Assembly: GCA_016204605.1 (NCBI GenBank)
Contig: JACQKK010000010.1
Location: forward strand, 77,549-141,548
Origin: Candidatus Lambdaproteobacteria bacterium
GTDB lineage: Bacteria > SAR324 > JACQKK01
Length of the DNA: 64,000 nucleotides
Direction: 5' to 3'
Under the pieces are notes generated by a model. That model did no database searches. It worked only from the letters and a program-made list of their open reading frames with translations, and was not told the origin of the DNA. The position numbers were made by a program, and so were the translations under genes. Of the stretch, positions 1 through 59,558 are shown in pieces (the first letter of the stretch is position 1; every line of letters starts with the position of its first letter).

Positions 1-855
1 GATTTCAAGGCCGGCGTGCGCGAGCTGGCCCGGGCCGAGCAGAACCCGCTCTCGGCGTTCGTGCTCAAGCAGATCAACGCCAACTACGACATCGCCGAGG
101 CCGACGGCCGGCCCATGTGCGGCGACACGGGCCTGCCGCGCTGGTACGTCAAGGCCGGCAACGCCTGCCGCACCGAGGGCGGCTTCTTCGCCCTGGAGCG
201 CGCCCTGCGCGAGGCGACCGCAGAATCCACCCGCGAGATTCCGCTGCGTCCGAACCGCGTGCACCCGCTCACCCGCCAGGATCACGACAACAACCTCGGC
301 ACCCACGCCCCGGAGATCCAGTACGCCTTCGAGCCCGAGGGCGAGTGGCTCGACCTGACCACGGTGCACAAGGGCGGCCTGTTCGGCAGCGACTACCGCA
401 TGCTCTTCCCCGCCGACGGCATCCCCGGCATCAAGAAGTTCTTCCTCGATACGATGGTCGAGTTCGGCCGGCGCGGCATGGCCTGCCAGCCCGCCGTGGT
501 GGGTCTCGGCATCGGCGGCTGCAAGGACACCACCATGCGCATCGCCAAGGAGGCCGCCTGCCTGCGGCCCGTGGGCGACCGCAACCCCGACTCCCAGCTC
601 GCCGCGCTCGAGCTCGAGCTGAAGAAGCTCGGCAACTCGATCGGGATGGGGCCGATGGGCTTCGTGGGCAGCGCCATGGTGGTCGACGCGCACATCGAGA
701 TCGCCTACACCCACACGGGCGGCATGCCCTGCGCCATCCACACCTTCTGCTTCGCCTCGCGCCGGGCCACCGCCCGCCTCACCCCCGCGGGCGAGGTCAG
801 CTTCCGCGACGACCCCCAGTGGTTCACCGACTACTACCGCCGCGAGGGGGTGTGA
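1..855 (+). CDS. Fumarate hydratase class I (Fe-S hydro-lyase) alpha subunit, 5'-truncated by the window edge
   Basis: The reading frame is open from base 1. It has the CGDTGLP motif and overall similarity to FumA N-terminal and TtdA-type hydro-lyases, and a beta-subunit gene follows. Confidence 0.85.
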   Translation, partial: DFKAGVRELARAEQNPLSAFVLKQINANYDIAEADGRPMCGDTGLPRWYVKAGNACRTEGGFFALERALREATAESTREIPLRPNRVHPLTRQDHDNNLGTHAPEIQYAFEPEGEWLDLTTVHKGGLFGSDYRMLFPADGIPGIKKFFLDTMVEFGRRGMACQPAVVGLGIGGCKDTTMRIAKEAACLRPVGDRNPDSQLAALELELKKLGNSIGMGPMGFVGSAMVVDAHIEIAYTHTGGMPCAIHTFCFASRRATARLTPAGEVSFRDDPQWFTDYYRREGV

Positions 856-1008: not shown

Positions 1009-1698
1009 ATGACCATCACCAGCATCGACCAGGTGACGATGGACCAGGTGCGGCTCCGCTGCCCGGTGCGCACCGACGACCTGCGGGCGCTCAAGCTGGG
1101 CGACGTGGTCTACCTCGACGGCGTGATCTACACCGGCCGCGAGGGGCTCTACCACCGCCTGCTGGATGAGAAGCAGGAGCTGCCGGTGCCCTGGAGCACG
1201 GTCTCCAACGTCAACTTCCACTGCTCGCCGGCCGCCAGCCCCACCGAGGGGGGCGGCTACAACGTGCGCGCGGTGACGGCCACCGCGTCGTTCCGCTTCG
1301 GCAAGTGGATGCAGGCCTTTTTCGAGAAGACCGGCGCCAGGCTCATCATCGGCAAGGGCGGGATGACCTCCAAGGACTACAAGCGGCTCTACGTGCCCAA
1401 CCAGGCGCTGTACCTGACCACGGTGGGCTACGGCCTGGGCGCCATGTACGGGCGCGGCATCACCGGCGTGCGCGCCGCCCACTGGCTCAAGGAGCTGGGG
1501 ATCGCCCAGGCCGTGTGGGTGCTCGAAGTGAGCAACATGGGGCCGTTCATCGTCGAGAGCGACTCGGAGGGCAACAGCCTGTTCGAGCTCGCCAACAAGA
1601 AGATCAACGAGAACCTGGCCGAGGTCTACCAGGGGCTGCCCCAGCCCGTGCTGCGCCGCTTCGGCGAGGAGACGGACCGGCGCGAGGAGGTGGTGTGA
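1009..1698 (+). CDS. Fumarate hydratase class I beta subunit (Fe-S hydro-lyase beta)
   Basis: 229 aa with the KGGMTSKDY..GRGITG..EVSNMGPFIV region typical of FumB-C-terminal/TtdB family proteins. It lies directly downstream of the alpha subunit. Confidence 0.85.
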   Translation: MTITSIDQVTMDQVRLRCPVRTDDLRALKLGDVVYLDGVIYTGREGLYHRLLDEKQELPVPWSTVSNVNFHCSPAASPTEGGGYNVRAVTATASFRFGKWMQAFFEKTGARLIIGKGGMTSKDYKRLYVPNQALYLTTVGYGLGAMYGRGITGVRAAHWLKELGIAQAVWVLEVSNMGPFIVESDSEGNSLFELANKKINENLAEVYQGLPQPVLRRFGEETDRREEVV

Positions 1699-2075
1699 GC
1701 GCGCCCGAGACGCGATCGGCCGGGCGACGCAGCAACGGCCTCTGGGGCTGGCTGCTGCAGCGGGTGAGCGGCATCTTCCTCGCCTACGCGCTGGTGGTGC
1801 ACCTGTGGACGGTGCACGTGGTCAACGTGGACCGGTTGACCTGGGCCACCATCTCCGCGCGGCTCCAGGACGGCACGCTCTGGACGGTCTACTACCTGCT
1901 GTTCGTGCCGGCCGTCGTGTACCACGCCCTGAACGGGGTGTGGGGCATCGCGCTCGACTACAGCCCCGCCCCGGCGGCGCGGCGGGGGATCGCGCTGGCG
2001 CTGTGGGCGGCCGGGCTGGCCCTGCTGGTCTACGGCTACTTCGGCCTGCGGCCCCTGTTCGGCGCGGGAGGCTGA
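1695..2075 (+). CDS. sdhC: Succinate dehydrogenase/fumarate reductase cytochrome b membrane subunit
   Basis: The GTG start overlaps the fumB stop (GTGA). The ~126-aa product has three TM segments and a conserved His (YHALNGV). It sits in an sdh/frd cluster. Confidence 0.7.
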   Translation: MSAPETRSAGRRSNGLWGWLLQRVSGIFLAYALVVHLWTVHVVNVDRLTWATISARLQDGTLWTVYYLLFVPAVVYHALNGVWGIALDYSPAPAARRGIALALWAAGLALLVYGYFGLRPLFGAGG

Positions 2076-2079
2076 GGCC

Positions 2080-2469
2080 ATGACCGCCCTCGTCGCCTAC
2101 CTGCGCCGCAGCCTGCTCCCCCAGGTCAACGTCGGCAACGCCGCCTGGCTGCTCCACCGGCTGACCGGGCTCGCCCTGGCCGTGTACCTGCTGCCCCACT
2201 TCGTCTCGATCAACGGCTCGCGCGCCGGGCCGGCGGCGTTCGATGCCGGGCTGGCGGTGTTCACGGCGCCCCTCTACAAGGCGGCGGAGTGGCTGCTGAT
2301 CGGCACCGTGGCCTTCCACGGGTTCAACGGGCTGCGCGTCATCGCCATCGACTTCTTCGCCCTGAGCGGCCGGCAGAAGCTCTTGTTCTGGCTGGTCATG
2401 GCCGCCACGGCGGCGGTGCTGCTCGCCGCCTCGCTGCTGTTCGTCCCGCGCATCCTGGCGCCGGCCTGA
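2080..2469 (+). CDS. sdhD: Succinate dehydrogenase/fumarate reductase hydrophobic membrane anchor subunit
   Basis: 129 aa, multi-TM, with an HGFNGLR motif. It is adjacent to sdhC. Confidence 0.7.
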   Translation: MTALVAYLRRSLLPQVNVGNAAWLLHRLTGLALAVYLLPHFVSINGSRAGPAAFDAGLAVFTAPLYKAAEWLLIGTVAFHGFNGLRVIAIDFFALSGRQKLLFWLVMAATAAVLLAASLLFVPRILAPA

Positions 2470-2577
2470 GAAAACCAACACGCACCATTTGGCGATGCAT
2501 GTTGTACGTGAGCAATACTGTGATGCAGCAGAAAGAAAGTCCAGCGCAATACTGAACTCTTGCCGGAGCGGCCGCAA

Positions 2578-3033
2578 ATGAACGATAAGGAGAAAATTGA
2601 CATATTGCTCAAGCAGGCCGAATTCTCTCTAGGCCAATTGCGCTTCCGCCAGCAACAAGAATGGCGCCTCAGTCTTTCCTTCTGGGGGCTCATCGCGGTC
2701 GCTGTCGGATTTTCGTGGATCAACATACCAGGCGTGCCAAAGTTCCCCATCATCCCTCTTTTGCTCTTTGAGGTTTTTGTCTTCGTAACCTACATCGTTG
2801 TGTGGGGGATTGGTATATGGAAAGGCAACTTCTATATTTCAAGAAGAGCCTATCATTACCGAGATGAAGCCTTAAGAATATTGGCAAATCCGAATCACGT
2901 ACTACAGCTATTTCCTTTTTATCCCGACTATAGATTTCCGCGAGCTGTCTGGTATCTGCTTTTTCGGGCACCGTTAACGCAAGTATTTGTAACGTTTCTA
3001 CTTCTTGCAATCAGTTTCTTTATTCTGGTTTAG
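2578..3033 (+). CDS. Hypothetical multi-TM membrane protein encoded on an AT-rich insert
   Basis: ORF 2560/2578..3033 sits in a segment (about 2470-3140) whose GC is far below the ~70% flanks. The product is very hydrophobic with several TM helices. I recognise no family. Confidence 0.45.
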   Translation: MNDKEKIDILLKQAEFSLGQLRFRQQQEWRLSLSFWGLIAVAVGFSWINIPGVPKFPIIPLLLFEVFVFVTYIVVWGIGIWKGNFYISRRAYHYRDEALRILANPNHVLQLFPFYPDYRFPRAVWYLLFRAPLTQVFVTFLLLAISFFILV

Positions 3034-3141
3034 ATGTTGTGCCCATCTGAGACATATCCAAGATGAAGTCGTTCGCATAGTGTAAAAATATTATCTTACC
3101 GATGTTATCAAGCCCCATTATCTTCTTGCAGAGAATGGACG

Positions 3142-4899
3142 ATGCCAAGCGCAAGCTGGGAGACGCTGGAGACCGACGTGCTGGTGCTGGGCAGCGGCGG
3201 GGCGGGGCTGTGCGCAGCTCTGCACATGGCCGACGCTGGGCGCCCGCCGCGGGTGACGCTCGCCGTGAAGGGGCTGTTCGGCAAGTCGGGCTGCACGCGC
3301 ATGGTGCAGGGCGGCTACAACGTGGTGCTCAACCCCAAGGACTCGCTGGAGGCGCACTTCGCCGATACCATCAAGGGCGGCCAATGGATCAACAACCAGG
3401 AGCTGGCCTGGCTGCTGGTGCAGCAGGCGCCGGGGCGCGTGCTGGAGCTGGAGAACCGCGCGGGCTGCTTCTTCGACCGTGACGCCGAGGGCAACGTCCA
3501 CCAAAAGCCCTTCGCCGGGCAGTCCTTCGACCGCACGGTGCACAAGGGCGACCTGACCGGAATCGAGATCATCAACCGCCTGGCCGAGCAGGTGCGCGCC
3601 GCGCCCAACACCACGATTCTCGAAGAGGTGCGCGCCGTCGAGCTGCTGCACGACGCCGCGGGCCAGCGCATCGTGGGCGCGCTGCTGGTGAACCAGCGCA
3701 CGGGGGGGTTCATCTGCGCCCGCGCCAAGGCCACGCTGCTCGCGACGGGCGGCGGGCCGACCATGTACAAGATCTCGGCGCCCTGCCAGGAGAAGTCCTG
3801 CGATGGCATCGCGATGGGCTACCGCGCCGGCGCCACGCTGATGGACATGGAGATGGTGCAGTTCCACCCGACCGGCCTGCTGGTGGCCAACCAGTTGATC
3901 TCCGGCACGGTGCTCGAGGAGGGTCTGCGCGGCGTGGGCGCCCACCTGGTCAACGGCAAGGGCGAGCGCTTCATGCACAAGTACGATCCGCGCGGCGAGC
4001 GGGCCACCCGCGATATCGTCTCCCGCAGCTGCTTCATCGAGGTGATGGAGGGGCGCGGCACGCGGGAGGAGGGCGTGCTGCTCGATGCCTCGCACCTGGG
4101 CGCCGAGTTCGTGCTGAAGAACTTCAAGGGCATGACCTTGCGCTGCCGCGACGTGGGGTACGATCTCACCCGCGAGCCGGTGCCGATCTCCCCCACGGCC
4201 CACTTCATGATGGGCGGCGTGCAGATCGACACCCGCTGCCGCACGGAGCTCGAGGGGCTGTTCGTGGCGGGCGAGGATGCGGCGGGCGTCCATGGCGCCA
4301 ACCGGCTCGGCGGCAACGGCGTGGCCGAATCGACCGTCTTCGGCGGCATCGCGGGCGATGTCATCGCGCGCTGGGTGCTGGAGGCGCCGCTCGTGCCCGT
4401 CGTCGAAGCGGAGCTGCGGGAAGGCATCGCCCGCAGCCTGGCGCCCTTCGCCAACACCGGCACGGGCTCGGTCTATCCCCTGCGCACCCGGCTGCGGGAG
4501 ACCATGTGGCGCAACGCGGGGCTCGTGCGCAGCGAGGCCACCCTGCGCGCGGCCGAGGCCGATCTCGACGACCTCCGCCAGCAGCTCGCACGGGTCGCGC
4601 TGCCCTCAGGGCGCGCCTACAACATGGCCTGGATGGATGCACTGAACCTGGAGAGCTACCTCGACATCTCGGGGGCGATCGTGCGGGCCGCGCTGGCCCG
4701 GCGCGAGAGCCGCGGCTCCCACTTCCGCTCCGACTTCCCGGAGAAGGACGACGCGCACTTTCTCTGCAACCTGCTGCTGACCCGCGACGACCGCGACCCC
4801 ATCCCGCAGGCCATCGACTTCTCCCGCCTCAAGCCGGACCATCCCGACATCTTCAACCGCTTCGACGTGGTGGGCCGCCCGCCGACGAAGGCGCTGTAG
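3142..4899 (+). CDS. sdhA: Succinate dehydrogenase/fumarate reductase flavoprotein subunit
   Basis: 585 aa with an N-terminal GSGGAG FAD-binding fold, HFMMGG, and the RSHFRSDFPEKDD C-terminal region typical of SdhA/FrdA. Confidence 0.9.
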   Translation: MPSASWETLETDVLVLGSGGAGLCAALHMADAGRPPRVTLAVKGLFGKSGCTRMVQGGYNVVLNPKDSLEAHFADTIKGGQWINNQELAWLLVQQAPGRVLELENRAGCFFDRDAEGNVHQKPFAGQSFDRTVHKGDLTGIEIINRLAEQVRAAPNTTILEEVRAVELLHDAAGQRIVGALLVNQRTGGFICARAKATLLATGGGPTMYKISAPCQEKSCDGIAMGYRAGATLMDMEMVQFHPTGLLVANQLISGTVLEEGLRGVGAHLVNGKGERFMHKYDPRGERATRDIVSRSCFIEVMEGRGTREEGVLLDASHLGAEFVLKNFKGMTLRCRDVGYDLTREPVPISPTAHFMMGGVQIDTRCRTELEGLFVAGEDAAGVHGANRLGGNGVAESTVFGGIAGDVIARWVLEAPLVPVVEAELREGIARSLAPFANTGTGSVYPLRTRLRETMWRNAGLVRSEATLRAAEADLDDLRQQLARVALPSGRAYNMAWMDALNLESYLDISGAIVRAALARRESRGSHFRSDFPEKDDAHFLCNLLLTRDDRDPIPQAIDFSRLKPDHPDIFNRFDVVGRPPTKAL

Positions 4900-5429
4900 C
4901 CCCCGGTTCGCATTCCCCGGCAGGCCGATCGGCGCGAACGATCGCGTCCTGCACGAGCACCGAGCTCTCCGCGACGCACGTCCTGGGCGGCGCCCAAGGT
5001 GGCGGCTGGGTGCCACGGCAACCGGCCTCCGGCGACGACTCCACGAGCGGTCGGGATCACGCAAGTCTGCGGCAACGGGCCCTCCGGCGTCGCTCCCGGT
5101 TCGGTCGCAGCAATTCCGCTCAAGTTCGGCGGGAATGGCTGTTGTGGGCTGTTTGCGCCCCATCCCGGTCGAGGATATCCATTGACACCCCTGGACGACC
5201 CGTGTTACTTCCAGTCGCTTCGGGTTTGATGGGGATGGGCGTGGCGCCTGTCCCGCGCGGTGTGCCTCGCCTGGTGCGCCGCGGTGTGGTGAACGATCGC
5301 GCCCGCGCTCTTCCGGTAGGGTACCTGCTCCGCAGGGTACGTTGCACGCCGTTCGCGTGAATCCCGGTTCGGCCCCGCGCATTTGACGACGCCCAAGACG
5401 CCCTCGGGCCAAGACGACCTCGGGTTCGT

Positions 5430-5900
5430 ATGGATTTCCGTGCCTCGAAATATCTCGTAGAAGTCTTCAACTTCGACGTGCTGCACATGCAGCTCAACAC
5501 GTCCCTGTTCATCCTGGGCCTCGTGTTGATCGTGATGTTCCTCATGAACCGCTGGCTGTTCAAGCCGGTGCTGCGGACGATGCAGAACCGCGAAAGACTG
5601 GTCGTCGAGCTGCACGCCACGTCCGAAGCGCAGCGGGCGGAGATCGGCCGGCTCACCCAGACCTACGAGGAGCAGCTCCGGCAGGCGCGCGAGGAGGTGG
5701 CCCGCGTGCGGCAGGAGGCGCGGCGCGAGGCGCAGCAGGCCGTGGAGGCCGTGCTGGCGCGCGCACGCCGGGAGGCGGCGGCGGAGCTGGCCGCCGCCGT
5801 CGCGGCGCTCGGGGCCGACGTGCGCGAAGCCCGCGCCCAACTGGGCCGCAGCGCCGATCTGCTGGCGGAGCGCGTGGCCACCCGCCTGCTCAGCGCGTGA
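5430..5900 (+). CDS. atpF: F-type ATP synthase subunit b' (second b-type stator subunit)
   Basis: 156 aa with an N-terminal TM helix and a long charged coiled-coil. The FKPVLRTMQNRE motif is typical of b/b'. It comes first in the atp gene run. Confidence 0.75.
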   Translation: MDFRASKYLVEVFNFDVLHMQLNTSLFILGLVLIVMFLMNRWLFKPVLRTMQNRERLVVELHATSEAQRAEIGRLTQTYEEQLRQAREEVARVRQEARREAQQAVEAVLARARREAAAELAAAVAALGADVREARAQLGRSADLLAERVATRLLSA

Positions 5901-6523
5901 AGGAGCGCATGGTGATGAAGACCCGGCACCTTTGGAGGTCGGCGGCCCGCGCTGCGGTCGCACTGGGCGCGGCGCTGTTCACCGTGCTGTGCACTGCACT
6001 GCTGACGGTGCCGGCATGGGCGGCGGAGCAGGCCGGCCATGGCAGTCCGTGGCTGGAACTGCTGTGGAAGACCATCAACTTCGCCGTCCTGATGGGGCTG
6101 CTGATCTACTTCCTGCGCAAGCCGATCGCGGGCTACCTCGCGCGCAGCGCCGGCGAGATGAAGCAGGGCCTCGACGACGCGCGCAGGAGCGCCGCGGAGA
6201 CGGCTGCACAGGTTCTGCAGCAGAAGCGGAACATCGAAGGCATGCAGGCCGAGCTCGAACGGATGGTGGCCGCCGCCAAGGCCGACGCCGCGCTGGAGCT
6301 GCGCCGCATGACCGAGGAGGCCGAGGCCCACGCGACGAAGAGCAAGGCCCAGACGGCGCTCCAGATCGAGCAGGAGGTGCGCAAGGCGCGCCAGGCCCTG
6401 CAAGAGGAGATCGCCGACCAGACCACGCGCATCGCCGAGCGGCTGATCCGTGCGCGCATGACGCCGGAGCGGCAGCAGCGCCTGGTCGCCGGATACGCGC
6501 GCCAGATGGGAGGCCAGCGATGA
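5897..6523 (+). CDS. atpF: F-type ATP synthase subunit b
   Basis: 208 aa with a TM segment plus an Ala/Glu/Arg-rich coiled-coil. It overlaps the upstream stop and is followed by delta. Confidence 0.75.
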   Translation: MKERMVMKTRHLWRSAARAAVALGAALFTVLCTALLTVPAWAAEQAGHGSPWLELLWKTINFAVLMGLLIYFLRKPIAGYLARSAGEMKQGLDDARRSAAETAAQVLQQKRNIEGMQAELERMVAAAKADAALELRRMTEEAEAHATKSKAQTALQIEQEVRKARQALQEEIADQTTRIAERLIRARMTPERQQRLVAGYARQMGGQR

Positions 6524-7062
6524 GCACCGCCGTGATCTCCCTGCGCTACGCGCGGGCGCTGATGAACCTCGCCGCCAAGGCCGGCCAGGTGGATGCCGTG
6601 GGCCGGGGGCTCGATGACCTGGCCGGCGCGCTGGAGTCCTCCCCCGCCCTGACCGGACTGCTCACCGAACCGCGGGTGTCGCACGCCCAGAAGAACGAGG
6701 TGCTGGGCCAACTGCTGCACCGCTTGCAGGCGCCGGCGCTGGTGACCACGTTTGTGCGCTTCGTCGCCCAGCAGCGGCGCACCCCGCTGCTGGCCGAAAT
6801 CGGCGCGCTGTACCGCCGGCTGGCCGATGAGCGCCAGGGGCGCGCCCAGGCCGAGGTGACGGTGGCGGAGCCCCTCGCGGCCGAGCAGCAGGAGGATCTG
6901 CGCCGGCGGATCGAGGCGCTGACCGGCAAGACCATCACGCTGCACGTACAGGTGGATCCCGCGATCCTGGGCGGCGTCGTCACCCGCATCGGCAACACGG
7001 TGCGCGATGGCAGCCTGCGCAGCCAACTGAACCACGTCCGACAATCGATCAGGGAAGGATGA
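6520..7062 (+). CDS. atpH: F-type ATP synthase subunit delta (OSCP)
   Basis: The ATG overlaps the atpF stop (ATGA). The product begins [14 protein letters not shown] and ends with a [23 protein letters not shown]-like C-terminus. Confidence 0.8.
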
Positions 7063-7069
7063 GTCCGCG

Positions 7070-8581
<1,512 letters not shown>

Positions 8582-8602
8582 CCGGACGGGCGCGCGTTTC
8601 TT

Positions 8603-10955
<2,353 letters not shown>

Positions 10956-11330
10956 CCCGCCAGCACCGGGCAGTCCCGCCGCGGCCCTGCACGCCTGCGG
11001 GGTCGCCATCCCGTCTGGCGCTCCTCCCGCCCGGCCCGATCGCGGTGTCTGGCCGCAGATCGGTCGCCTTGGCACCCCTCCGCTGGCGGTCACCGCCGCC
11101 GCACCAATGAACCCTGTTGCACGATGCGGGGCGTCGCCGCCCACCCCTCCGCCGGGGCCGCGGGGCTGCACCCCGCTGGGCGCCTGCGGCGCGGTCGCGC
11201 GCCCTCGCCCCATGCGCTGGATGCAGGGAGCCCTGCGGCCTGCCGGCAAGTGAACGTGGGGCGGGGCGGTCGAGGGGGTGAGGTCTCGTGCCAACTCGCC
11301 GGGCGTTGCGGGGGCGAACGCGCCTCGCCG

Positions 11331-11570
11331 CTACTGGCACAGGCGCTTCAGCCAGCCCACCACGAGACGGGTCTCCCGCTCCTCGAACTGGGCCCGCTCG
11401 AGCTTGCCCTGGCGGAATCCGCTGCGCAGATAGTGCAGCTTGGCGAGCCACTCGGTCTCGTCGGCGCAGTCGCTCCACCCCTCGCGGGCGCGCTTGACGA
11501 GGCGCTCGTACTCCGCCTCTTCGATCGGCTGCGGGACGCGCTCCGAGAACGGGCGCAACGGGATCGCCAT
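11331..11570 (-). CDS. Hypothetical small protein (79 aa) downstream of apt
   Basis: The ORF has an ATG and GC-rich codon usage and is co-directional with apt. I recognise no family. Confidence 0.35.
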   Translation of the reverse strand: MAIPLRPFSERVPQPIEEAEYERLVKRAREGWSDCADETEWLAKLHYLRSGFRQGKLERAQFEERETRLVVGWLKRLCQ

Positions 11571-11580
11571 CAGGTGGCCC

Positions 11581-12105
11581 TCATTCGCCCGCGAATTCCA
11601 CCAGGGCGTCGACGGGGTATCGCCCCAGCCGGTCGCGCCCCTTGAGATCGACCAATTCCACCACGAACGCGCAGCCGGCGACATGGGAACCCACCTGCTC
11701 GACCAGCCGGCAGGCCGCTTCCATGGTGCCGCCGGTCGCGAGCAGATCGTCGACCATCAGCACGCGGCTCCCGCGGCGGAGCGCATCGACGTGGATTTCG
11801 AGGCGATCCGTGCCGTATTCGAGCGCATACTCGACCCCCAGCTTCGGCCCCGGCAGCTTGCCCGGCTTGCGCACCGGCACGAACCCCTTGCCCAGCGCGT
11901 AGGCCACCGGCGCGGCCAGGATGAACCCCCGCGATTCCACCCCCACCACCGCATCGAACGCCGTGGCGCGATGGCGCTCGATCAGCGCATCCACGGCCCG
12001 CCGGAACCCTTCGGGGTGAAGGAACAGCGTCGTCAGGTCGCGGAACTCGATGCCCGGCTTGGGAAAGTCGGGAATGGTGCGGATGTACTGCTTGAGATGA
12101 TCCAT
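11581..12105 (-). CDS. apt: Adenine phosphoribosyltransferase
   Basis: 174 aa with a VLMVDDLLATGGT PRPP-binding motif and overall Apt similarity. Confidence 0.9.
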   Translation of the reverse strand: MDHLKQYIRTIPDFPKPGIEFRDLTTLFLHPEGFRRAVDALIERHRATAFDAVVGVESRGFILAAPVAYALGKGFVPVRKPGKLPGPKLGVEYALEYGTDRLEIHVDALRRGSRVLMVDDLLATGGTMEAACRLVEQVGSHVAGCAFVVELVDLKGRDRLGRYPVDALVEFAGE

Positions 12106-12214
12106 GTCGCGAGGAGTTCGCTCCAGCGTGTGTGGACGTGGCCGGCGACGCCGTGCGGGAATCGCGCGCGCTGCCCGCCTGCGGCGGGAGCCTGGGGCCG
12201 GGCCGCGGGCCGTT

Positions 12215-13375
12215 TCAAGAGGCGGTCGTGGCCGTGCCCTGGTCGGCGCCCGCCGGTGGCGCCTGCGGGGCGGGGCGGGACTGCAACTGCTGCAGGAAGC
12301 GGCTGAGCTTCAGCCGGTTGAGCTCCTTCATCCCGACGAACTCGCCGTGCATCTGGAGGGTCCCGTCCGCGCGCTGCTGGGTGCCCACCACTGTGCCGAC
12401 AAGGTCATCGCGGATCTGGGCCTCGACGAGGCGGAACAGCACCATGTCGCCCTCCTGCGGGTCCTGCTCACCCTGCGGCACGATCAGCAGCGCACCGCCG
12501 ATGCTGAGGTCTTCCACGTGGCCGTGTAGGGCGTACTGCGATTCGTCCGCCTTGAAGTGGCTGTGGCTGCGGGCCGCAGCCACCTCATGGCGCACGATGA
12601 AGAACTGCGTGTCGATATGCACTTGGAGCCGCGCGGCGTTGCGGAACAACAGCCGCTGAATCTCGCCGGTGTGCTCGACGGCGACCGCCTGCTGGCTCTG
12701 GCCCACCACCTGCGCCGTGAACTGGTACTCGGCATCGTCCTCCCGTGCAATCCGGAACGTGAGGGCGTGGAACCTGCGCAAGTCCACCGGCTTCCCTTTC
12801 ACCGTGGGCGGCCTGATGAACATGTGCCGCTCCGTCACCCCCACCACGGAGGTGAGGAAGGTGATCTCGCGCTTGACGGGAAGCCTGCATTGTACGCGCA
12901 ACCCCGCGGAGAGCATCCGCGTGTCATCGAACGGATTGCGCCGGTTGTTGAACCCGTATCCCAGCTTCTGGCGCAGATAGGCCGCCTTGCGCAGGGCGGC
13001 GTGCTCGGGGAAGCTTTCCCGGAAGGCGGCCACGGCCTCCTCGAACGCCTTGCGCACTTCGATCAGCGGGATGTTCCGCACCGGATCGACGCTCTGGGAG
13101 AAGGTTTCCAGCAACTCCCGGTCTCGCTCGTTCAAGCCCAGCTCGGTGAGAAACAGCCTGAAGCGCGCTTCCTCGCGCTGCTTGTTGTACTCGCTCGCCT
13201 GGAGCCGGCGCTTGAGATACAAGAGGAACAGGATGCCGAGGATGAGCAGCACCACTCCCAGCACGCTGAACATCACGACCTGATTGAGGCCGGCCGATTC
13301 GCTCTGCTGGAACTGGAGGTACTTGAGATCCAGCTCGGTGGCGACGGCGAGGATGGGTGGCGCGTGCATAGTCAC
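12215..13375 (-). CDS. Membrane-anchored PilZ-domain protein (putative c-di-GMP receptor, YcgR-like)
   Basis: 386 aa with an N-terminal TM helix. The C-terminal region carries the PilZ motifs RxxxR (FRNAAR) and DxSxGG (EDLSIGG). Confidence 0.6.
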   Translation of the reverse strand: MTMHAPPILAVATELDLKYLQFQQSESAGLNQVVMFSVLGVVLLILGILFLLYLKRRLQASEYNKQREEARFRLFLTELGLNERDRELLETFSQSVDPVRNIPLIEVRKAFEEAVAAFRESFPEHAALRKAAYLRQKLGYGFNNRRNPFDDTRMLSAGLRVQCRLPVKREITFLTSVVGVTERHMFIRPPTVKGKPVDLRRFHALTFRIAREDDAEYQFTAQVVGQSQQAVAVEHTGEIQRLLFRNAARLQVHIDTQFFIVRHEVAAARSHSHFKADESQYALHGHVEDLSIGGALLIVPQGEQDPQEGDMVLFRLVEAQIRDDLVGTVVGTQQRADGTLQMHGEFVGMKELNRLKLSRFLQQLQSRPAPQAPPAGADQGTATTAS

Positions 13376-51875: not shown

Positions 51876-52601
51876 GTGTTTCCGGACGTGATGCGCTATA
51901 GAGCACCGGACTCCGAAGCGAGCGGAAATTCAAGGCAGAAGACTACCAGCGCAGGACTACACGTGGCGGGCTACCATATTGAACTCGAAGGTCAGGCTCT
52001 CGTTCTACTGGGGAAATTCAATCCGGGCATTATTCAACCGGCTTGGCTAGCCCACCAGGGACTCATCCGCCCTGAAGAGTCAGACAGCGCAAAGATTGAT
52101 ATCATTCGCTCTGAAATCTCGCTGTTCTCGATTGGTTCACTTAAACTGCTAACGCAGCCGGAAAAATTCCAAATTGAGACCGTCGCAGTTGAAGAGAGTC
52201 CTACGATCAAGGACCTTGCGCTTGGCATATTTACAGTGCTTGAGCATACCCCATTGTCAGCACTCGGGATTAATCGAGATGTCCATTTCAAAGTTGAATC
52301 GACCGACGTGTGGCATGCCGTTGGTCATCGACTTGTACCTAAGGATGTTTGGAAATCAATCATGGAAGAGCCAGGCACGAGATCTGTCATCGTAAGATCA
52401 AACAGACCAACCAAGGAGGGGCGATTGACGGTAAGAGTCGAACCGTCTGCGCGGACACAACCTGGCATCTATGTAGGAACAAACCTGCATTTCAACCTTG
52501 AACGACCCCAAATACTTCAAGTATTGGATAAAATGTGGGAGCAATCGCAGATCAACGCGCGAAAAGCAGCCGAGACGATTCTCGAATATTGCACAGGATG
52601 A
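51876..52601 (+). CDS. Hypothetical protein (241 aa), gene 1 of a low-GC island
   Basis: GC is ~48-50% against the ~70% background. I recognise no family. The start could be a few codons downstream (MRYRAP). Confidence 0.5.
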   Translation: MFPDVMRYRAPDSEASGNSRQKTTSAGLHVAGYHIELEGQALVLLGKFNPGIIQPAWLAHQGLIRPEESDSAKIDIIRSEISLFSIGSLKLLTQPEKFQIETVAVEESPTIKDLALGIFTVLEHTPLSALGINRDVHFKVESTDVWHAVGHRLVPKDVWKSIMEEPGTRSVIVRSNRPTKEGRLTVRVEPSARTQPGIYVGTNLHFNLERPQILQVLDKMWEQSQINARKAAETILEYCTG

Positions 52602-52608
52602 CTAGGAA

Positions 52609-53250
52609 ATGCTTACACCAAAGGAGTTCAAAGTTTGGCAGCCTCCTCCATTCGATGAGGCGGATCTCACTGCAACATTCGATGAGGCGGATCTCACTGC
52701 AAACAGAGATCGATCCTTACCGGGGGGCGGTACAAGTCGGTCCCTTCCACCTACCCTTGTTCCCCAATCTCGCACAATCCCCGACCAGTCGACTGCCACT
52801 CTGAGACCAGAAGAAGCGCAATCCGAGAGAATGAGTAGGCCGGCTGAAAAGCAGGTGCACGAGGTTCCATTTGTCGTCCCGCAACAAGGGACTATTACCC
52901 ATCGAACGCAGCTCTTGGAACAATGGGAAGGGACTGTTCAGACGATTTCCCAGAAGAAGTTCGTCGCGGTGCTAAGGTCAATGCTTTCGGCAGAACGAAC
53001 TGAAGAGTCGGCAACCTTCGAAATCGATTCGGTACCTGATGCCGACCTTTCGCTTGTACAGCCCGGGGCCGTATTCTATTGGAGTGTCGGCTACAGGAAC
53101 GAGCTAAGCGGGCAGAAGGTGCTAATGAGCGTTGTCAGATTCCGAAGGCTGCCCGCATGGTCGAAGCGCGATATTGAACGCGCAAGAAACACAGCGGAGA
53201 AATTCTCGGTATTTTTCGATGATCAACATTCGGAATCGGCCAGCGGCTGA
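52609..53250 (+). CDS. Hypothetical protein (213 aa), gene 2 of the low-GC island, with an internal 24-bp tandem duplication
   Basis: GC is low. FDEADLTA is repeated twice, encoded by a perfect 24-bp tandem repeat. I recognise no family. Confidence 0.45.
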   Translation: MLTPKEFKVWQPPPFDEADLTATFDEADLTANRDRSLPGGGTSRSLPPTLVPQSRTIPDQSTATLRPEEAQSERMSRPAEKQVHEVPFVVPQQGTITHRTQLLEQWEGTVQTISQKKFVAVLRSMLSAERTEESATFEIDSVPDADLSLVQPGAVFYWSVGYRNELSGQKVLMSVVRFRRLPAWSKRDIERARNTAEKFSVFFDDQHSESASG

Positions 53251-54310
53251 CGAGTTTGAGTTGTCGCTATTTGGTCCAGGGGTTGGCGAATGTGTAGTTG
53301 TGCACCTAGGACAAGGCGAGTGGCTTGTTGTTGATTCCTGTATCGATCGTGAAACGCGGAAACCCGTAGCCCTAGACTACTTCGACAAACTAGGTCTGAA
53401 TCCGGCTGAAGCCGTGCGACTGGTCATCGTGACTCACTGGCACGACGACCACATTGGTGGAGCATCGGCCGTAGCCAAAGCCGCAACCCGGGCCGACATC
53501 GTCTGTTCCGCTGCGCTCAACTGTAAGGAATTTCAGACGGTGCTAGGCGTTACGGCCGTGCCGTACATGCGGGGTGCCGGCGTCGATGAGATGACGCAGA
53601 TCTTCGAGCTTCTACTTGATCGAAGGAGTAGTAACCGATTGGATATTACCCCAGTCTGGGCGAAAGCACACACTCGACTGTATCAAACCGTTGCCGGAAG
53701 CGTTGAGGCTCTGAGCCCGTCTGACGCAACCTTCTCTCGCTTTCTTCAGGAGATTGCGAGTCTGCTGCCCGGCGTGGGAGCAACTGCACGCCGAGCAGTA
53801 AAGAACACACCCAATGAAACTGCGATTGCCATCTGGATTGAGGCGGGCGAAATCCGGGCGTTATTGGGCTCTGACTTGGAAAAGGGTGATACCGGAGTCA
53901 CCGGTTGGCAGGCCGTCGTCAATTCAACTCGCCGGCCACAAGGGAGAGCCAGACTCTTGAAAGTCGCCCATCATGGCTCTGACGGAGCAGATGAGCCGCG
54001 TGTGTGGAGCGACATGCTGGAACCACAGCCTCTGGCTGTCCTGACGCCATTTCGGCGAAGTTGGTTGCCCCGCGAAACAGACCTAGAACGCATTGCATCA
54101 CAAGCGGGGCAGGCATTTTGCACTGCGCTCCCGCGACCTACTCGCCCAGCCCGCCGCGCGCCAACTGTTGAAAAGCTAGTCCGTCGTGTTGCGCCCGATT
54201 TGCGCGAAGTTGTGGGTCCGATGGGACATGTCCGGATTCGGATCAAGCGGGGTGCGTCGACGCCCTCCATTGAACGGCGCGGCCCGGCATTTCAGTTGAG
54301 ACACCCGTAG
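53219..54310 (+). CDS. ComEC/Rec2-related metallo-beta-lactamase-fold hydrolase (COG2333-like), gene 3 of the low-GC island
   Basis: THWHDDHIGGA is the HxHxDH motif. The downstream KVAHHGSDGADE is the ComEC-type MBL signature. GC is low. The start could be 53132 or 53219. Confidence 0.6.
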   Translation: MINIRNRPAADEFELSLFGPGVGECVVVHLGQGEWLVVDSCIDRETRKPVALDYFDKLGLNPAEAVRLVIVTHWHDDHIGGASAVAKAATRADIVCSAALNCKEFQTVLGVTAVPYMRGAGVDEMTQIFELLLDRRSSNRLDITPVWAKAHTRLYQTVAGSVEALSPSDATFSRFLQEIASLLPGVGATARRAVKNTPNETAIAIWIEAGEIRALLGSDLEKGDTGVTGWQAVVNSTRRPQGRARLLKVAHHGSDGADEPRVWSDMLEPQPLAVLTPFRRSWLPRETDLERIASQAGQAFCTALPRPTRPARRAPTVEKLVRRVAPDLREVVGPMGHVRIRIKRGASTPSIERRGPAFQLRHP

Positions 54311-56426: not shown

Positions 56427-56723
56427 ATGGCAAGGACTGCCGCCAAGACCGTGCGCCGCGAGCGCGAGTACGCCATCCCGGGGAAATGCTCCCCCGGCAT
56501 GTTCCCGAGCGAGTACGCGGTGACCATCCAACTCGGCGATAAGGAGTTCTCGCTGTTCGCGGACCGCAGGGACGTCAAGCTGCTCGACGCCGAGACGGGG
56601 GAATGCCTGGTTCGAGTGCGCGTGTTCGACAAGAAGAAGCAGATCATCTCACTGCCGGGGGAGACGCTGGAGAATGGTCGTCAATTCGCCGTATACCCGA
56701 TAGACCAACTCCATGACCTATGA
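56427..56723 (+). CDS. Hypothetical small protein (98 aa) translationally coupled to the downstream dcd-like gene
   Basis: A GGGGAG ribosome-binding site precedes the ATG. The stop overlaps the next start (ATGA). I recognise no family. Confidence 0.4.
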   Translation: MARTAAKTVRREREYAIPGKCSPGMFPSEYAVTIQLGDKEFSLFADRRDVKLLDAETGECLVRVRVFDKKKQIISLPGETLENGRQFAVYPIDQLHDL

Positions 56724-57301
56724 TTCTAAGCAATTCCGAAATTCTACGTGCAATATCGAGAGGTGAATTGGCGATCGGCGAGTTACGCGGCGATGAAGAT
56801 CCGTCTCGATCGCCCTTTAACACCTGCTCTGTGGATCTCCGGCTTGCAGATATAGTGGTGGAACCCAAAGACGCCATATCCTCCGTGGATTTCTTTCGAG
56901 GACAAGGCAAAATTTCGGACTACCTTGCTGATAACTCTAAATCGTATCGTATTCATCCCAATCAGTCTTATACCCTATCTCCTGGCGGTTTCGTACTCGC
57001 AAAAACGGAAGAAAGAGTGCAATTTCCTGTAGCAAAGTCCAGATCCAGGCGCACATTTGGCGGTCGGGTAGAAGGCCGCAGCAGCATCGCACGATGCGGG
57101 GTGTTGGTTCATTGCACCGCGCCCACGATTCACGCCAATTTCGAGGGAACCATCACGTTGGAGCTCGTCAATCTCGGCAAATGGAATTTCCTGCTGTACC
57201 CCGGCATGTTAATTTGTCAACTCATGGTCGAGCATGTCCACGGCCGAGTCATTCCCACGCCCACACAGTTCATCGGGCAAGACAAGCCCTTCGGCCGCTG
57301 A
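56720..57301 (+). CDS. dcd: dCTP deaminase-family (dUTPase-fold) protein, low-GC
   Basis: 193 aa. GRSSIARCGVLVHCTAPTIHANFEGTITLELVNLGKWNFLLYPGMLICQLMVE aligns closely with the E. coli Dcd core (GRSSLARLGLMVHVTA..IVLEFYN.G..PL.L.PGM.I). GC is ~50%. Confidence 0.8.
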   Translation: MILSNSEILRAISRGELAIGELRGDEDPSRSPFNTCSVDLRLADIVVEPKDAISSVDFFRGQGKISDYLADNSKSYRIHPNQSYTLSPGGFVLAKTEERVQFPVAKSRSRRTFGGRVEGRSSIARCGVLVHCTAPTIHANFEGTITLELVNLGKWNFLLYPGMLICQLMVEHVHGRVIPTPTQFIGQDKPFGR

Positions 57302-57307
57302 ATCTCC

Positions 57308-58069
57308 ATGCCCCCACGCCCGTTGACGATCCACCCCGTGACCGGCCTGCCCGAGTTCATGCCGGGCGATGACCTGGCGGCCGCCTTCTGGGGCGCCGTG
57401 CAGGCGCAGGGGTTGGCCCTGGCCGAAGGCGACGTGGTCGTCGTGGCGCAGAAGGCAGTCTCGAAGTGCGAAGGCTCGCGCATGGCGCTGAGCGCCATCG
57501 ACCCCTCGCCCTTCGCGCGCTATTGGGCCGAGAAGTGGGGCAAGGACCCGCGCCAGGTGGAGATCGTGCTCCGGGAGAGCCGGCGCATCGTCAGGATGGA
57601 GCGCGGGCTGATCATCGCCGAGACCCGCCACGGCTACGTCTGCGCCAACGCGGGCGTGGACCTCTCCAACGCCGGCACGGCGGAGGGGGTGGCGATCCTG
57701 CTGCCGGAGGACCCGGACCGCTCGGCCCGCACGCTGCGGGAGCGCATCCGCGATCTCTCCGGGCGCTCGGTGGCGGTGATCGTGGCCGATACTTTCGGGC
57801 GCCCCTGGCGGAGCGGGCTGGTGCAGGTCGCCCTCGGCGCGGCCGGGCTGCTGCCCGTGCGCGACTACCGCGGCAAGACCGATGCCGACGGCCGCGAGCT
57901 GAAGAGCACCGAGATCGCCCTGGCCGACGAGCTGGCCTCAGCCGCGGACCTCGTCTGCGGCAAGGTGCACCGCGTCCCCATCGCCGTGATCCAGGGCTAC
58001 GAGGCCCCCCCCGGCGAGGCCGACGGCCGCGCCCTGATCCGCCCCCCGGAGATGGACCTGTTCAGGTAG
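57308..58069 (+). CDS. cofE: Coenzyme F420-0:L-glutamate ligase
   Basis: 253 aa. The CofE family pattern (..VVVAQKAVSKCEGS...GYVCANAGVD.SN..) is present. GC is native. Confidence 0.8.
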   Translation: MPPRPLTIHPVTGLPEFMPGDDLAAAFWGAVQAQGLALAEGDVVVVAQKAVSKCEGSRMALSAIDPSPFARYWAEKWGKDPRQVEIVLRESRRIVRMERGLIIAETRHGYVCANAGVDLSNAGTAEGVAILLPEDPDRSARTLRERIRDLSGRSVAVIVADTFGRPWRSGLVQVALGAAGLLPVRDYRGKTDADGRELKSTEIALADELASAADLVCGKVHRVPIAVIQGYEAPPGEADGRALIRPPEMDLFR

Positions 58070-58106: not shown

Positions 58107-59558
58107 TCAAATGTTTTCCATAATCTGCGCTTGCCTACGAATTAAGTTCCTTCCAAGAATATAACAGTAAACTGCGGCCTCTTGAAATTCGATTCTCAGA
58201 CCCTCGACTTCGTGTTCCCCATGTACCGATTTTGTCGTAACTTTCGCATGATCCAGGCCAACCCGTGCGCAGAAAGCAATGAGACTCTTCAAGTCTTTTG
58301 TGTTGTCAAAATATCGGTCGCTCCATTTCACTTCAACACACCATCTCACTTCATTACCTTTTTCCAGATCAACAATGTCAACTTCGCCTTCCGATCCTCC
58401 CTTCTTCCAACGAGCATAGTGAATATTATTCATGAAGTTCCCCGCATGAATCCACTGACAAAATATTGCAGTTTCGACTAAGCTCCCAATTTCATCTTCG
58501 ATCTTGACTAGTCCAAATAGGGCTGCGTACATTGATGGATTTGTTAGATAGACTTTGAAGAAATTGATCTTGTTAAATGTTTTGCCATTGTTATCAACTC
58601 TTTTCACAGTCTTGATGAGAAATGCCGCTTCAAGGTATTCGATATATCGCTTGATCGTATTCTTAGACAGCCCTGAAGCTACACTTAAATTTTCAAACGT
58701 AATCTCATTTCCAGTCTGGTACGCGAGGACATAGAATAGACGAGTAAGTTCTTGTACATCATTGATACCATAAAGAGATGGCAAGTCTCGCAGCAAGACC
58801 TTGTCGATGATGTCGCTACGGATGAACCTTTCAGGATTCTTCTGGATAGCTTCACTGAATACGGATTCTGGGAAGCCGCCAAAATTAATGTAACGAATGA
58901 ACTCTCGATTGAGACTCGCAATATCTTTGACTTCAATCCGCCCATGTTTCTTAATTGAAACGAAGTACCTTTCGTGTAAATTTTGCAGGTCTAAAAATTC
59001 ATAGAATGTGAGAGGAGGTAACATGAAGTCTGTAAATCTGCCGGCACCAGACTCCAAACTCTTCATTCTAAGGGCAGCAGCTGCGGAACCCGAAGCAATG
59101 AACTTGGTATGCTTCTCAGTATCCACAAGATGTTTCAGATGTACTTCCCAACCGTTCAAATATTGGATTTCATCGAAAATGACTATGCATCCATTCGTCT
59201 TGTCCTTGTCGGTCACTTCTTTGTAGAGTTTCACCAATTCTTCGAGGCGGAGGCCTTGAAATAGCGGTGTTTCTAAAGGCAAGTAAACAATGTCATGAGG
59301 CTGTTTCCCGGAGTCAATCAGCTTTTGTATGAAATGATGAAGCATTACCGTCTTGCCAACGCGCCTAGGTCCCATAAGGACAACGGCCCGATTGGGTGTA
59401 GTACTGCTGCCAAGAGGGTAGAATAGATCGAAATATCGCCTTTGCTTGTACTTGCGGAGTTCTGGATCGATTGAGGACGTTTGCCAGTGGGGATTCAGAT
59501 CGCGCAGTTTTTTGTGTAGCGTGTCTTGGGGAATTTCTCGGATCACGATACTCTCCAA
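58107..59558 (-). CDS. AAA+ superfamily ATPase of the COG1373 / AAA_14+DUF4143 family, low-GC
   Basis: 483 aa. The Walker A is LMGPRRVGKT and the Walker B region is CIVIFDEIQ. The C-terminal region resembles DUF4143. GC is ~40%. Confidence 0.75.
   Translation of the reverse strand: MESIVIREIPQDTLHKKLRDLNPHWQTSSIDPELRKYKQRRYFDLFYPLGSSTTPNRAVVLMGPRRVGKTVMLHHFIQKLIDSGKQPHDIVYLPLETPLFQGLRLEELVKLYKEVTDKDKTNGCIVIFDEIQYLNGWEVHLKHLVDTEKHTKFIASGSAAAALRMKSLESGAGRFTDFMLPPLTFYEFLDLQNLHERYFVSIKKHGRIEVKDIASLNREFIRYINFGGFPESVFSEAIQKNPERFIRSDIIDKVLLRDLPSLYGINDVQELTRLFYVLAYQTGNEITFENLSVASGLSKNTIKRYIEYLEAAFLIKTVKRVDNNGKTFNKINFFKVYLTNPSMYAALFGLVKIEDEIGSLVETAIFCQWIHAGNFMNNIHYARWKKGGSEGEVDIVDLEKGNEVRWCVEVKWSDRYFDNTKDLKSLIAFCARVGLDHAKVTTKSVHGEHEVEGLRIEFQEAAVYCYILGRNLIRRQAQIMENI

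Follow-up and report, generated by a model that had tools for sequence, protein, structure and literature searches.

A 672-bp stretch of foreign DNA lies between sdhD and sdhA in a fum-sdh gene string of a metagenome-assembled genome (MAG) of Candidatus Lambdaproteobacteria, and its single gene, ORFX (HY423_01280), encodes a small membrane protein, probably of the inner membrane. All coordinates refer to the whole 64-kb stretch of DNA that was analyzed (here called the window; GC content, ~0.68), unless a different locus is named. We consider it likely that the insert represents recently acquired mobile accessory cargo, which would be expressed by read-through from the surrounding genes and would not be a part of complex II.

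The composition of the insert differs sharply from that of its surroundings. With a GC content of 0.448, compared to a median of 0.693 for 672-bp windows, it lies 7.4 robust standard deviations below that median, and the 1.5% of 672-bp windows with an equally low GC content all fall within other low-GC islets of the window. The GC content at third codon positions (GC3) is 0.50 in ORFX, versus 0.95 to 0.98 in sdhC, sdhD, sdhA, and fumB. On the basis of this low GC content and the difference in GC3 with the flanking genes, the insert is not only foreign but also essentially unameliorated. A sequence-only reading of the same DNA had already pointed out a low-GC stretch of ~670 bp between the end of sdhD (2469) and the start of sdhA (3142), with a same-strand open reading frame (ORF) for a protein of ~150 amino acids and several transmembrane (TM) helices, and had proposed that this was foreign DNA, lying codirectionally within the operon. 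The gene limits, the GC content, and the encoded protein (151 amino acids, three TM helices) all bear this description out, as does the organization of the same junction in related genomes.

A scan for SdhA, with one genome per species, yielded 80 loci, 13 of which, at 65 to 75% SdhA identity, contain both sdhD and sdhA. The order fumA-fumB-sdhC-sdhD-sdhA is kept in most of these 13 relatives, and in nine of them sdhD and sdhA are separated by a mere 7 to 30 bp, usually including a GGAG-type ribosome-binding site. The junction in locus L007 consists of a 137-bp, AT-rich spacer (5864 to 6000 of that locus) with CACAGAG/CTCTGTG inverted repeats, and loci L009 and L016 have genes (2.7 to 3 kb) of host-like GC content at this position, encoding, for example, a LysE-type transporter. 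In L007, two GAF/adenylate-cyclase genes were also seen between fumB and sdhC (2434 to 5149).

A parallel to the insert was found in L014, a distant relative with an SdhA that is 66% identical. Here, too, a low-GC insert (2 kb; 3934 to 5973 of the locus) occupies the sdhD-sdhA junction on the same strand, with a GC content of 0.38 to 0.51 versus 0.66 to 0.70 in the flanks. Its two products, AbiEi (PADLOC, E = 6e-20) and AbiEii (Pfam PF08843, E = 1e-21), together form a known abortive-infection/toxin-antitoxin module. Both inserts lie after the sdhD stop and before the sdhA start, in the same orientation, and share a low-GC signature in a high-GC host; they differ in that AbiE comprises two genes and apparent operator palindromes, whereas ORFX is a single membrane protein gene without a partner. 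The sdhD-sdhA inserts of the window, L014, and L007 share no sequence with one another or with further low-GC islets in the window, and since the low-GC inserts of the window and L014 are unrelated, different foreign cargo has entered this junction on independent occasions. The L014 insert starts with a 30-nt perfect palindrome (CCAGTACAATGCGTTAACGCATTGTACTGG), a second, partial copy of which follows a masked run of N's; this palindrome is probably the AbiEi operator.

Since the source is a MAG and since composition changes sharply at both ends of the insert, a chimeric join with reads from a low-GC organism, introduced during assembly or binning, had to be considered. Two independent single-run Logan assemblies (from the separate runs SRR12113384 and SRR12113383), however, agree with the window at every base of the insert and of both junctions, in matches that include hundreds of bases of the flanking high-GC sdh sequence. 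Because both carry the identical insert, it is not an assembly chimera, and we regard an artifact as hardly conceivable. The exact SdhD protein is recorded on insert-carrying contigs only, and a search with that protein found no empty-site allele, with sdhD joined to sdhA, on record; the insert appears to be fixed in the sampled population.

As judged from the family alignment, ORFX starts at the ATG at 2578 rather than at the TTG at 2560. Hydropathy and the AlphaFold model place its TM helices at approximately residues 31 to 49, 57 to 81, and 127 to 151, and the positive-inside rule, given a positively charged loop at residues 81 to 123, predicts a cytoplasmic N terminus and an external C terminus. 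An AlphaFold prediction with the family alignment was made with high confidence (pLDDT, 90.7; pTM, 0.78); in this model, two very long helices (residues 3 to 47 and 58 to 103) would pair into a TM hairpin that extends into the cytoplasm, accompanied by the third TM helix. A Foldseek search with the model against PDB and BFVD gave no significant match. The sequence-only reading recognized no family for the protein, which holds for named families (no match for ORFX in Pfam or NCBIfam at E ≤ 1, in PHROGs, or in PADLOC) but not for homologs in general. A word-indexed homolog search returned ORFX alone, or just four proteins when the family alignment served as the query, and ORFX is the sole member of its 90% identity cluster; an exhaustive phmmer (HMMER) search of 1.84 billion cluster representatives (E < 1e-3), in turn, uncovered 117 remote homologs, mostly 140 to 220 amino acids in length, with 24 to 44% identity and end-to-end alignment. 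ORFX thus belongs to an unnamed three-TM family of ~120 clusters, which has no Pfam entry and for which the predicted structure is a confident one.

Three motifs characterize this family: one running into the first TM helix (K-E-K-F-D-A-C-x-K-x-A-E-F...R-R-x-Y-E-W-K-V-x-L-G-F-W), one following the second (W-L-R-G-x-W-x-A-N-x-x-D-K...H-F...I-L-x-D-P-x-H), and one preceding the third (F-L-x-D-W-S-x-x-F-Q). In the family alignment, R24 is invariant and W29, W36, and W76 are near-invariant; ORFX retains all four, along with E28, N84, H93, and NPNH (the NPxH motif). Among the proteins returned by the exhaustive search, one of 1,062 amino acids (P0021) matches ORFX residues 9 to 43 in 11 separate stretches; repeats of the N-terminal helix motif might account for this, as might low-complexity noise.

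The family is sparse and widely scattered, and the view that its members behave as mobile cargo is well supported. By means of a degenerate-pattern scan of contigs, based on a 14-sequence alignment (a 69-sequence alignment offered no conserved stretch and was unusable here), we obtained 49 metagenome loci, each with one family gene, the GC content of which was below that of its flanks in 25 of the 28 loci examined. To call attC sites, the recombination sites of integron cassettes, we used a heuristic of our own (RYYYAAC...GTTRRRY), which across the family loci yielded hairpins of 54 to 131 nt. In three loci (L085, L086, and L090), the family gene is directly bracketed by near-identical 90-nt attC sites (GCCTAAC...GTTAGGC) with zero core mismatches; in L090, a 7-kb contig with 12 attC sites, the order is attC (4323 to 4412), family gene (4424 to 4855), attC (4867 to 4956). 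Another array, from a Bacteroidota MAG (L104/L134), contains attC sites of 54 to 114 nt between small same-strand ORFs, one of which is a family member. At least two independent attC arrays, in sum, carry family members as integron gene cassettes. In L134, the halves of many attC sites are separated by nested repeat families of ~200 nt (D1, D4, D6, and D8; 1500 to 13000 of that locus), which could be an attC-targeting element.

Other members were encountered outside integrons. In L084, a ~1-kb islet (5568 to 6660) next to tRNA-Glu(CTC) carries the family gene and no other cargo; a 23-nt sequence that repeats the 3' end of the tRNA bounds this islet, in which no integrase is present. In L098, the insert with the family gene lies between 103-nt, 98%-identical duplications (99 to 201 and 833 to 935) of a GC-rich host coding end, which suggests integration that regenerated the 3' end of the target gene. 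At some loci, the neighbors include IS1-like transposases, a tyrosine integrase, Bro-N, a TIR protein, and a resolvase. Finally, several members stand alone, with housekeeping genes on both sides: the closest homolog of ORFX is a lone gene 36 bp after guaA, and another member, in a MAG from the same series of studies, adjoins truA. The integron cassettes, the tRNA islet, the transposase and integrase neighbors, and the wedged lone genes together are the grounds on which we consider the family to be mobile cargo.

For the insert in the fum-sdh string, neither terminal inverted repeats at its ends nor a flanking direct repeat of more than 12 nt was found (repeat search, 2300 to 3300), and the insert contains no transposase ORF, no Rfam match, and no detectable similarity to plasmid or phage DNA. 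The predicted folds of the 5' leader (z = +0.4 for 2466 to 2515 and +2.0 for 2466 to 2580) are not more stable than those of shuffled sequence, and that of the 3' spacer (3031 to 3145; z = -0.16) resembles shuffled sequence as well. An alignment with the spacers of the relatives gave no clear assignment of the ends of the ancestral spacer. We propose that the insert was acquired recently, by horizontal transfer into a short sdhD-sdhA spacer; it probably arrived on a small piece of chromosome, from a donor whose copy of the gene already resided outside an integron, and would have survived because the intergenic spacer was the sole permissive site in the gene string.

Given the cassette nature of its relatives, ORFX might instead have been placed in the spacer by an integron integrase, acting at a secondary, non-attI site, with the attC site having decayed since. 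Cassettes are promoterless and require transcription from outside, which fits the codirectional position of ORFX, and non-integron homologs of cassette genes without attC have been documented (bioRxiv 10.1101/2024.07.02.601719). With our heuristic, however, the region from 2440 to 3200 showed no hairpin-forming R''/R' pair resembling attC, even with up to three core mismatches allowed; there is no GTT-type junction at the insert; and in the 64-kb window the same heuristic showed no attC array, only two isolated matches in GC-rich coding DNA (intI was not specifically searched for). Moreover, ORFX is flanked on each side by ~108 nt of noncoding, non-attC foreign DNA, while in L090 the attC site ends just 11 nt before the ATG, and this extra DNA makes arrival as a free integron cassette improbable. 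The unameliorated GC3, in addition, would have left little time for attC decay. All in all, we consider secondary-site integration improbable and prefer arrival as a chromosomal fragment.

Regarding expression, a scan for sigma-70-type promoters revealed no promoter-like site upstream of ORFX, the sole match in the insert being located within the gene (2810 to 2838), and, in a scan for intrinsic terminators, the plus strand from sdhD to sdhA showed no terminator-like site. Since ORFX does have its own Shine-Dalgarno-like sequence, read-through from the fum-sdh string is the simplest and most likely reading of these features: ORFX would be transcribed from the promoter of fumAB-sdhCD, and sdhA would be transcribed through the insert. 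Cotranscription, as put forward by the sequence-only reading, is in that sense plausible. A point that tempers this reading is that the scans span the sigma-70-type and intrinsic-terminator consensus only and that the host is a member of an uncultured lineage.

The location of a small multi-TM protein gene exactly between the genes for the membrane anchor and the flavoprotein, codirectional and probably cotranscribed with them, could be taken to indicate that, in this lineage, succinate dehydrogenase/fumarate reductase has gained an accessory subunit, an assembly factor, or a modulator that acts on the membrane anchor. Nevertheless, no sdh or fum gene was found near family members in any of the 49 metagenome loci or in six further contigs, and, vice versa, none of the 80 SdhA loci gave a match to the family hidden Markov model. 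At the sdhD-sdhA junction of the relatives, a GC-normal gene of the same family was looked for and not found: nine have the 7- to 30-bp spacer and others have unrelated genes. ORFX also lacks a match to any Sdh or Frd family (Pfam and NCBIfam, E ≤ 1), and its unameliorated GC3 points to a very recent arrival. Because linkage of ORFX to sdh is unique to this genome, the subunit interpretation, one of those offered by the sequence-only reading, is largely refuted, and we now consider it very improbable. For the biology of respiration, this is a negative, albeit useful, result: no new complex II subunit.

The insert could also be a stranded fragment, neutral or slightly harmful, with a nonfunctional gene, which persists because a precise deletion is unlikely and an imprecise one would damage sdhD or sdhA. 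In ORFX, the near-invariant Asp of the N..DK motif is replaced by an isoleucine (I87) and the adjacent Lys by a Ser, and the Trp is missing from the C-terminal DW motif; on account of these changes, we call ORFX a divergent family member, and it may be functionally diverged or decaying, which counts against a working accessory gene. The insert also lacks attC, terminal inverted repeats, a target-site duplication, and a recombinase, and ORFX is a single-copy orphan in its 90% identity cluster. On the other hand, an intact frame of 151 codons would arise by chance in such AT-rich DNA with a probability of only ~1e-4 (as estimated from base composition), the Shine-Dalgarno-like sequence is retained, and the protein aligns with its family over its full length, keeps conserved residues including NPxH, and gives a confident AlphaFold model. 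We therefore think a dead fragment unlikely, albeit less so than a secondary-site cassette. An addiction element is less probable than either; in that scenario, ORFX would be a membrane toxin or toxin-like gene, protected from loss by its position in an essential operon. While the hydrophobic nature of the small protein, the AbiE module that L014 has at this junction, and the abundance of toxin-antitoxin genes among cassettes (PMC10661359) would be in line with this, there is no antitoxin partner or conserved neighbor at any locus, no antisense RNA or Rfam match, and no match to PADLOC or toxin-antitoxin families, and many members stand alone between housekeeping genes. Of the selfish or addiction element suggested earlier, the mobile-cargo part is well supported, in the form of cassettes and islet cargo, and a toxin or addiction mechanism appears improbable. 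A phage-derived gene, also suggested, is not supported, given the lack of significant matches in IMG/VR, INPHARED, PHROGs, and BFVD.

As to what such cargo might do, our tentative lead, by analogy, is a stand-alone conflict function at the membrane, such as phage exclusion, abortive infection, or infection-triggered membrane damage. This guess is based on the mobile-cargo character of the family, the presence of AbiE at the same junction in L014, the dCTP-deaminase-like gene in another islet of the window, and precedents for defense functions among cassettes. Many cassettes without a known function prove to be phage defense genes, approximately one-third of which have TM helices, and one of them, Deva, is a membrane protein that blocks T7 genome injection (bioRxiv 10.1101/2024.07.02.601719); toxin-antitoxin systems are, in addition, overrepresented among cassettes, as are proteins with a signal peptide, which are transmembrane or secreted (PMC10661359). 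Several findings weigh against a conflict function. No conserved neighbor, partner gene, or tandem paralog was seen around the family genes, most of which reside in plain housekeeping neighborhoods rather than defense islands. PADLOC returned nothing but noise for 69 family members (PycTM, E = 0.005, in 3 of the 69), and PHROGs gave no match for ORFX and a match for a single member out of the 69. Viral links are lacking as well, with no relative confirmed in IMG/VR and none found in INPHARED (tblastn). Furthermore, the repeated insertion at sdhD-sdhA may simply reflect that this is the sole tolerated site in a constrained gene string. The main alternatives are that ORFX may be a near-neutral or decaying passenger, in view of its lost Asp/Lys motif, or may serve another niche function.

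Integron cassettes, including those named BRiCs (bioRxiv 10.1101/2024.07.02.601719), are among the known systems closest to ORFX. Like these, ORFX is a single ORF of ~450 bp, with no promoter-like site upstream of it and apparently dependent on outside transcription, and in at least two arrays its homologs have a canonical attC site on either side. As in approximately one-third of the BRiCs, the product is a TM protein without known domains, and, as for some BRiC homologs, the gene is found outside an integron and without attC (both, bioRxiv 10.1101/2024.07.02.601719). Unlike in cassettes, no attC or attI was detected with the window copy, nor was intI (for which no specific search was made), and this copy has the ~108 nt of extra flanking DNA per side. 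The family profile showed no similarity to Deva/BrcWGS21, for which the query was read from a supplement with noise from optical character recognition, and no match to the ORFX protein was found in phage or plasmid collections. From the small genomic islets that occur in core operons, with a sharp compositional boundary and one gene between conserved syntenic genes, the insert does not differ in any essential way, and we place it in this category of ordinary horizontal gene transfer.

Another resemblance concerns SLATT (SMODS- and SLOG-associating 2TM effector) proteins and similar small TM effectors of conflict systems, in which, as in the ORFX model, a long cytoplasmic helix at the N terminus leads into a TM hairpin. 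The top 12 weak BFVD matches from Foldseek included three viral proteins annotated as SLATT, all nonsignificant (E, ~0.8 to 1.6; TM-score, ~0.33 to 0.42). ORFX differs from SLATT in having three TM helices rather than two and in not being associated with a nucleotide-signaling gene, and the SLATT Pfam family is absent among the listed Pfam matches for ORFX and the 69 family members. Pfam S_4TM matched family members at noise level, and Pfam PF24838 ("8xMP," octameric membrane protein) gave weak matches in 6 of the 69 (best E, 3.4e-4) and none for ORFX; these 8xMP matches are below a convincing level and typical of TM-composition bias, and a literature search on this Pfam family produced nothing relevant.

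We speculate, with considerable reserve, that the family could constitute a new single-gene, membrane-acting anti-phage or conflict system that circulates in the form of cassettes, with short spacers in highly expressed core operons as landing pads that supply transcription to defense cargo lacking promoters; this we think about as unlikely as a dead fragment. If true, ORFX in the window and AbiE in L014 would be two independent cases of such landing pads at sdhD-sdhA, and if the family does consist of defense genes, the pattern of "parking" inside operons would merit a systematic survey. Apart from this, an unnamed three-TM family has been linked to integron cassettes and to islet cargo, making it a candidate for screens of function-unassigned cassettes, and the insert offers a natural example of a cassette-type gene outside an integron that apparently borrows the transcription of a core operon. 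Both this family and the parallel insertion of AbiE at the same junction should be of modest interest to those studying integrons and defense islands.

Table 1. Positions of the insert, the surrounding fum-sdh genes, and other low-GC features in the window
Feature	Position	Strand	Description
fumA-like gene (class I fumarate hydratase, alpha part)	16-855	+	Pfam Fumerase, E = 1e-63; first visible gene of the string
fumB-like gene (fumarase C-terminal part)	1009-1698	+	Pfam Fumerase_C, E = 7e-23; stop overlaps sdhC start
sdhC, membrane anchor	1695-2075	+	Pfam Sdh_cyt, E = 8.5e-12; GC3, 0.97
sdhD, second membrane anchor	2080-2469	+	Pfam Sdh_cyt, E = 1.5e-15; GC3, 0.98; TGA stop at 2467-2469
Low-GC foreign insert, whole	2470-3141	+	Limits defined by composition; up to ~15 nt per end could be ancestral spacer
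5' leader of insert	2470-2577	+	GC content, 0.51; imperfect palindrome at 2476-2504; 9-nt direct repeat GCAATACTG at 2512-2520 and 2546-2554
Shine-Dalgarno-like GGAG	2565-2568	+	9 nt 5' of the ORFX ATG; read from sequence
ORFX (HY423_01280)	2578-3033	+	151 amino acids, three TM helices; divergent member of an unnamed family of ~150-amino-acid proteins
3' spacer of insert	3034-3141	+	GC content, 0.40; extends to the sdhA ATG; no attC-like structure, no terminator
sdhA/frdA-type flavoprotein gene	3142-4899	+	Pfam FAD_binding_2, E = 7e-80; Succ_DH_flav_C, E = 5e-27; directly 3' of the insert
Low-GC islet between core genes of ~0.7 GC	51876-54310	+	Two orphan ORFs and a metallo-beta-lactamase-fold protein
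dCTP-deaminase-like gene	56720-57301	+	GC content, 0.48-0.54; Pfam PF22769, E = 8e-27
Low-GC islet between core genes of ~0.7 GC	58107-59558	-	AAA_14/DUF4143 ATPase; GC content, 0.37-0.49

With respect to the gene string itself (Table 1), the best model for SdhA was that of TfrA (thiol:fumarate reductase; NF004900), with 557 bits against a cutoff of 718. No ORF in the window (1 to 64000) contains the C..C..C...CP ferredoxin motif expected for sdhB, and the relatives are likewise without sdhB after sdhA. Downstream of sdhA, ~530 bp of noncoding DNA is followed by an ATP synthase operon.

Besides the insert, the window contains at least three further low-GC islets (Table 1). One of these holds the dCTP-deaminase-like gene; dCTP deaminases form one of the recognized classes of anti-phage genes. 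The stop codon of this gene lies 6 nt before the ATG of a high-GC cofE/F420 ligase gene (57308 to 58069), so that, like ORFX, it forms a codirectional wedge.

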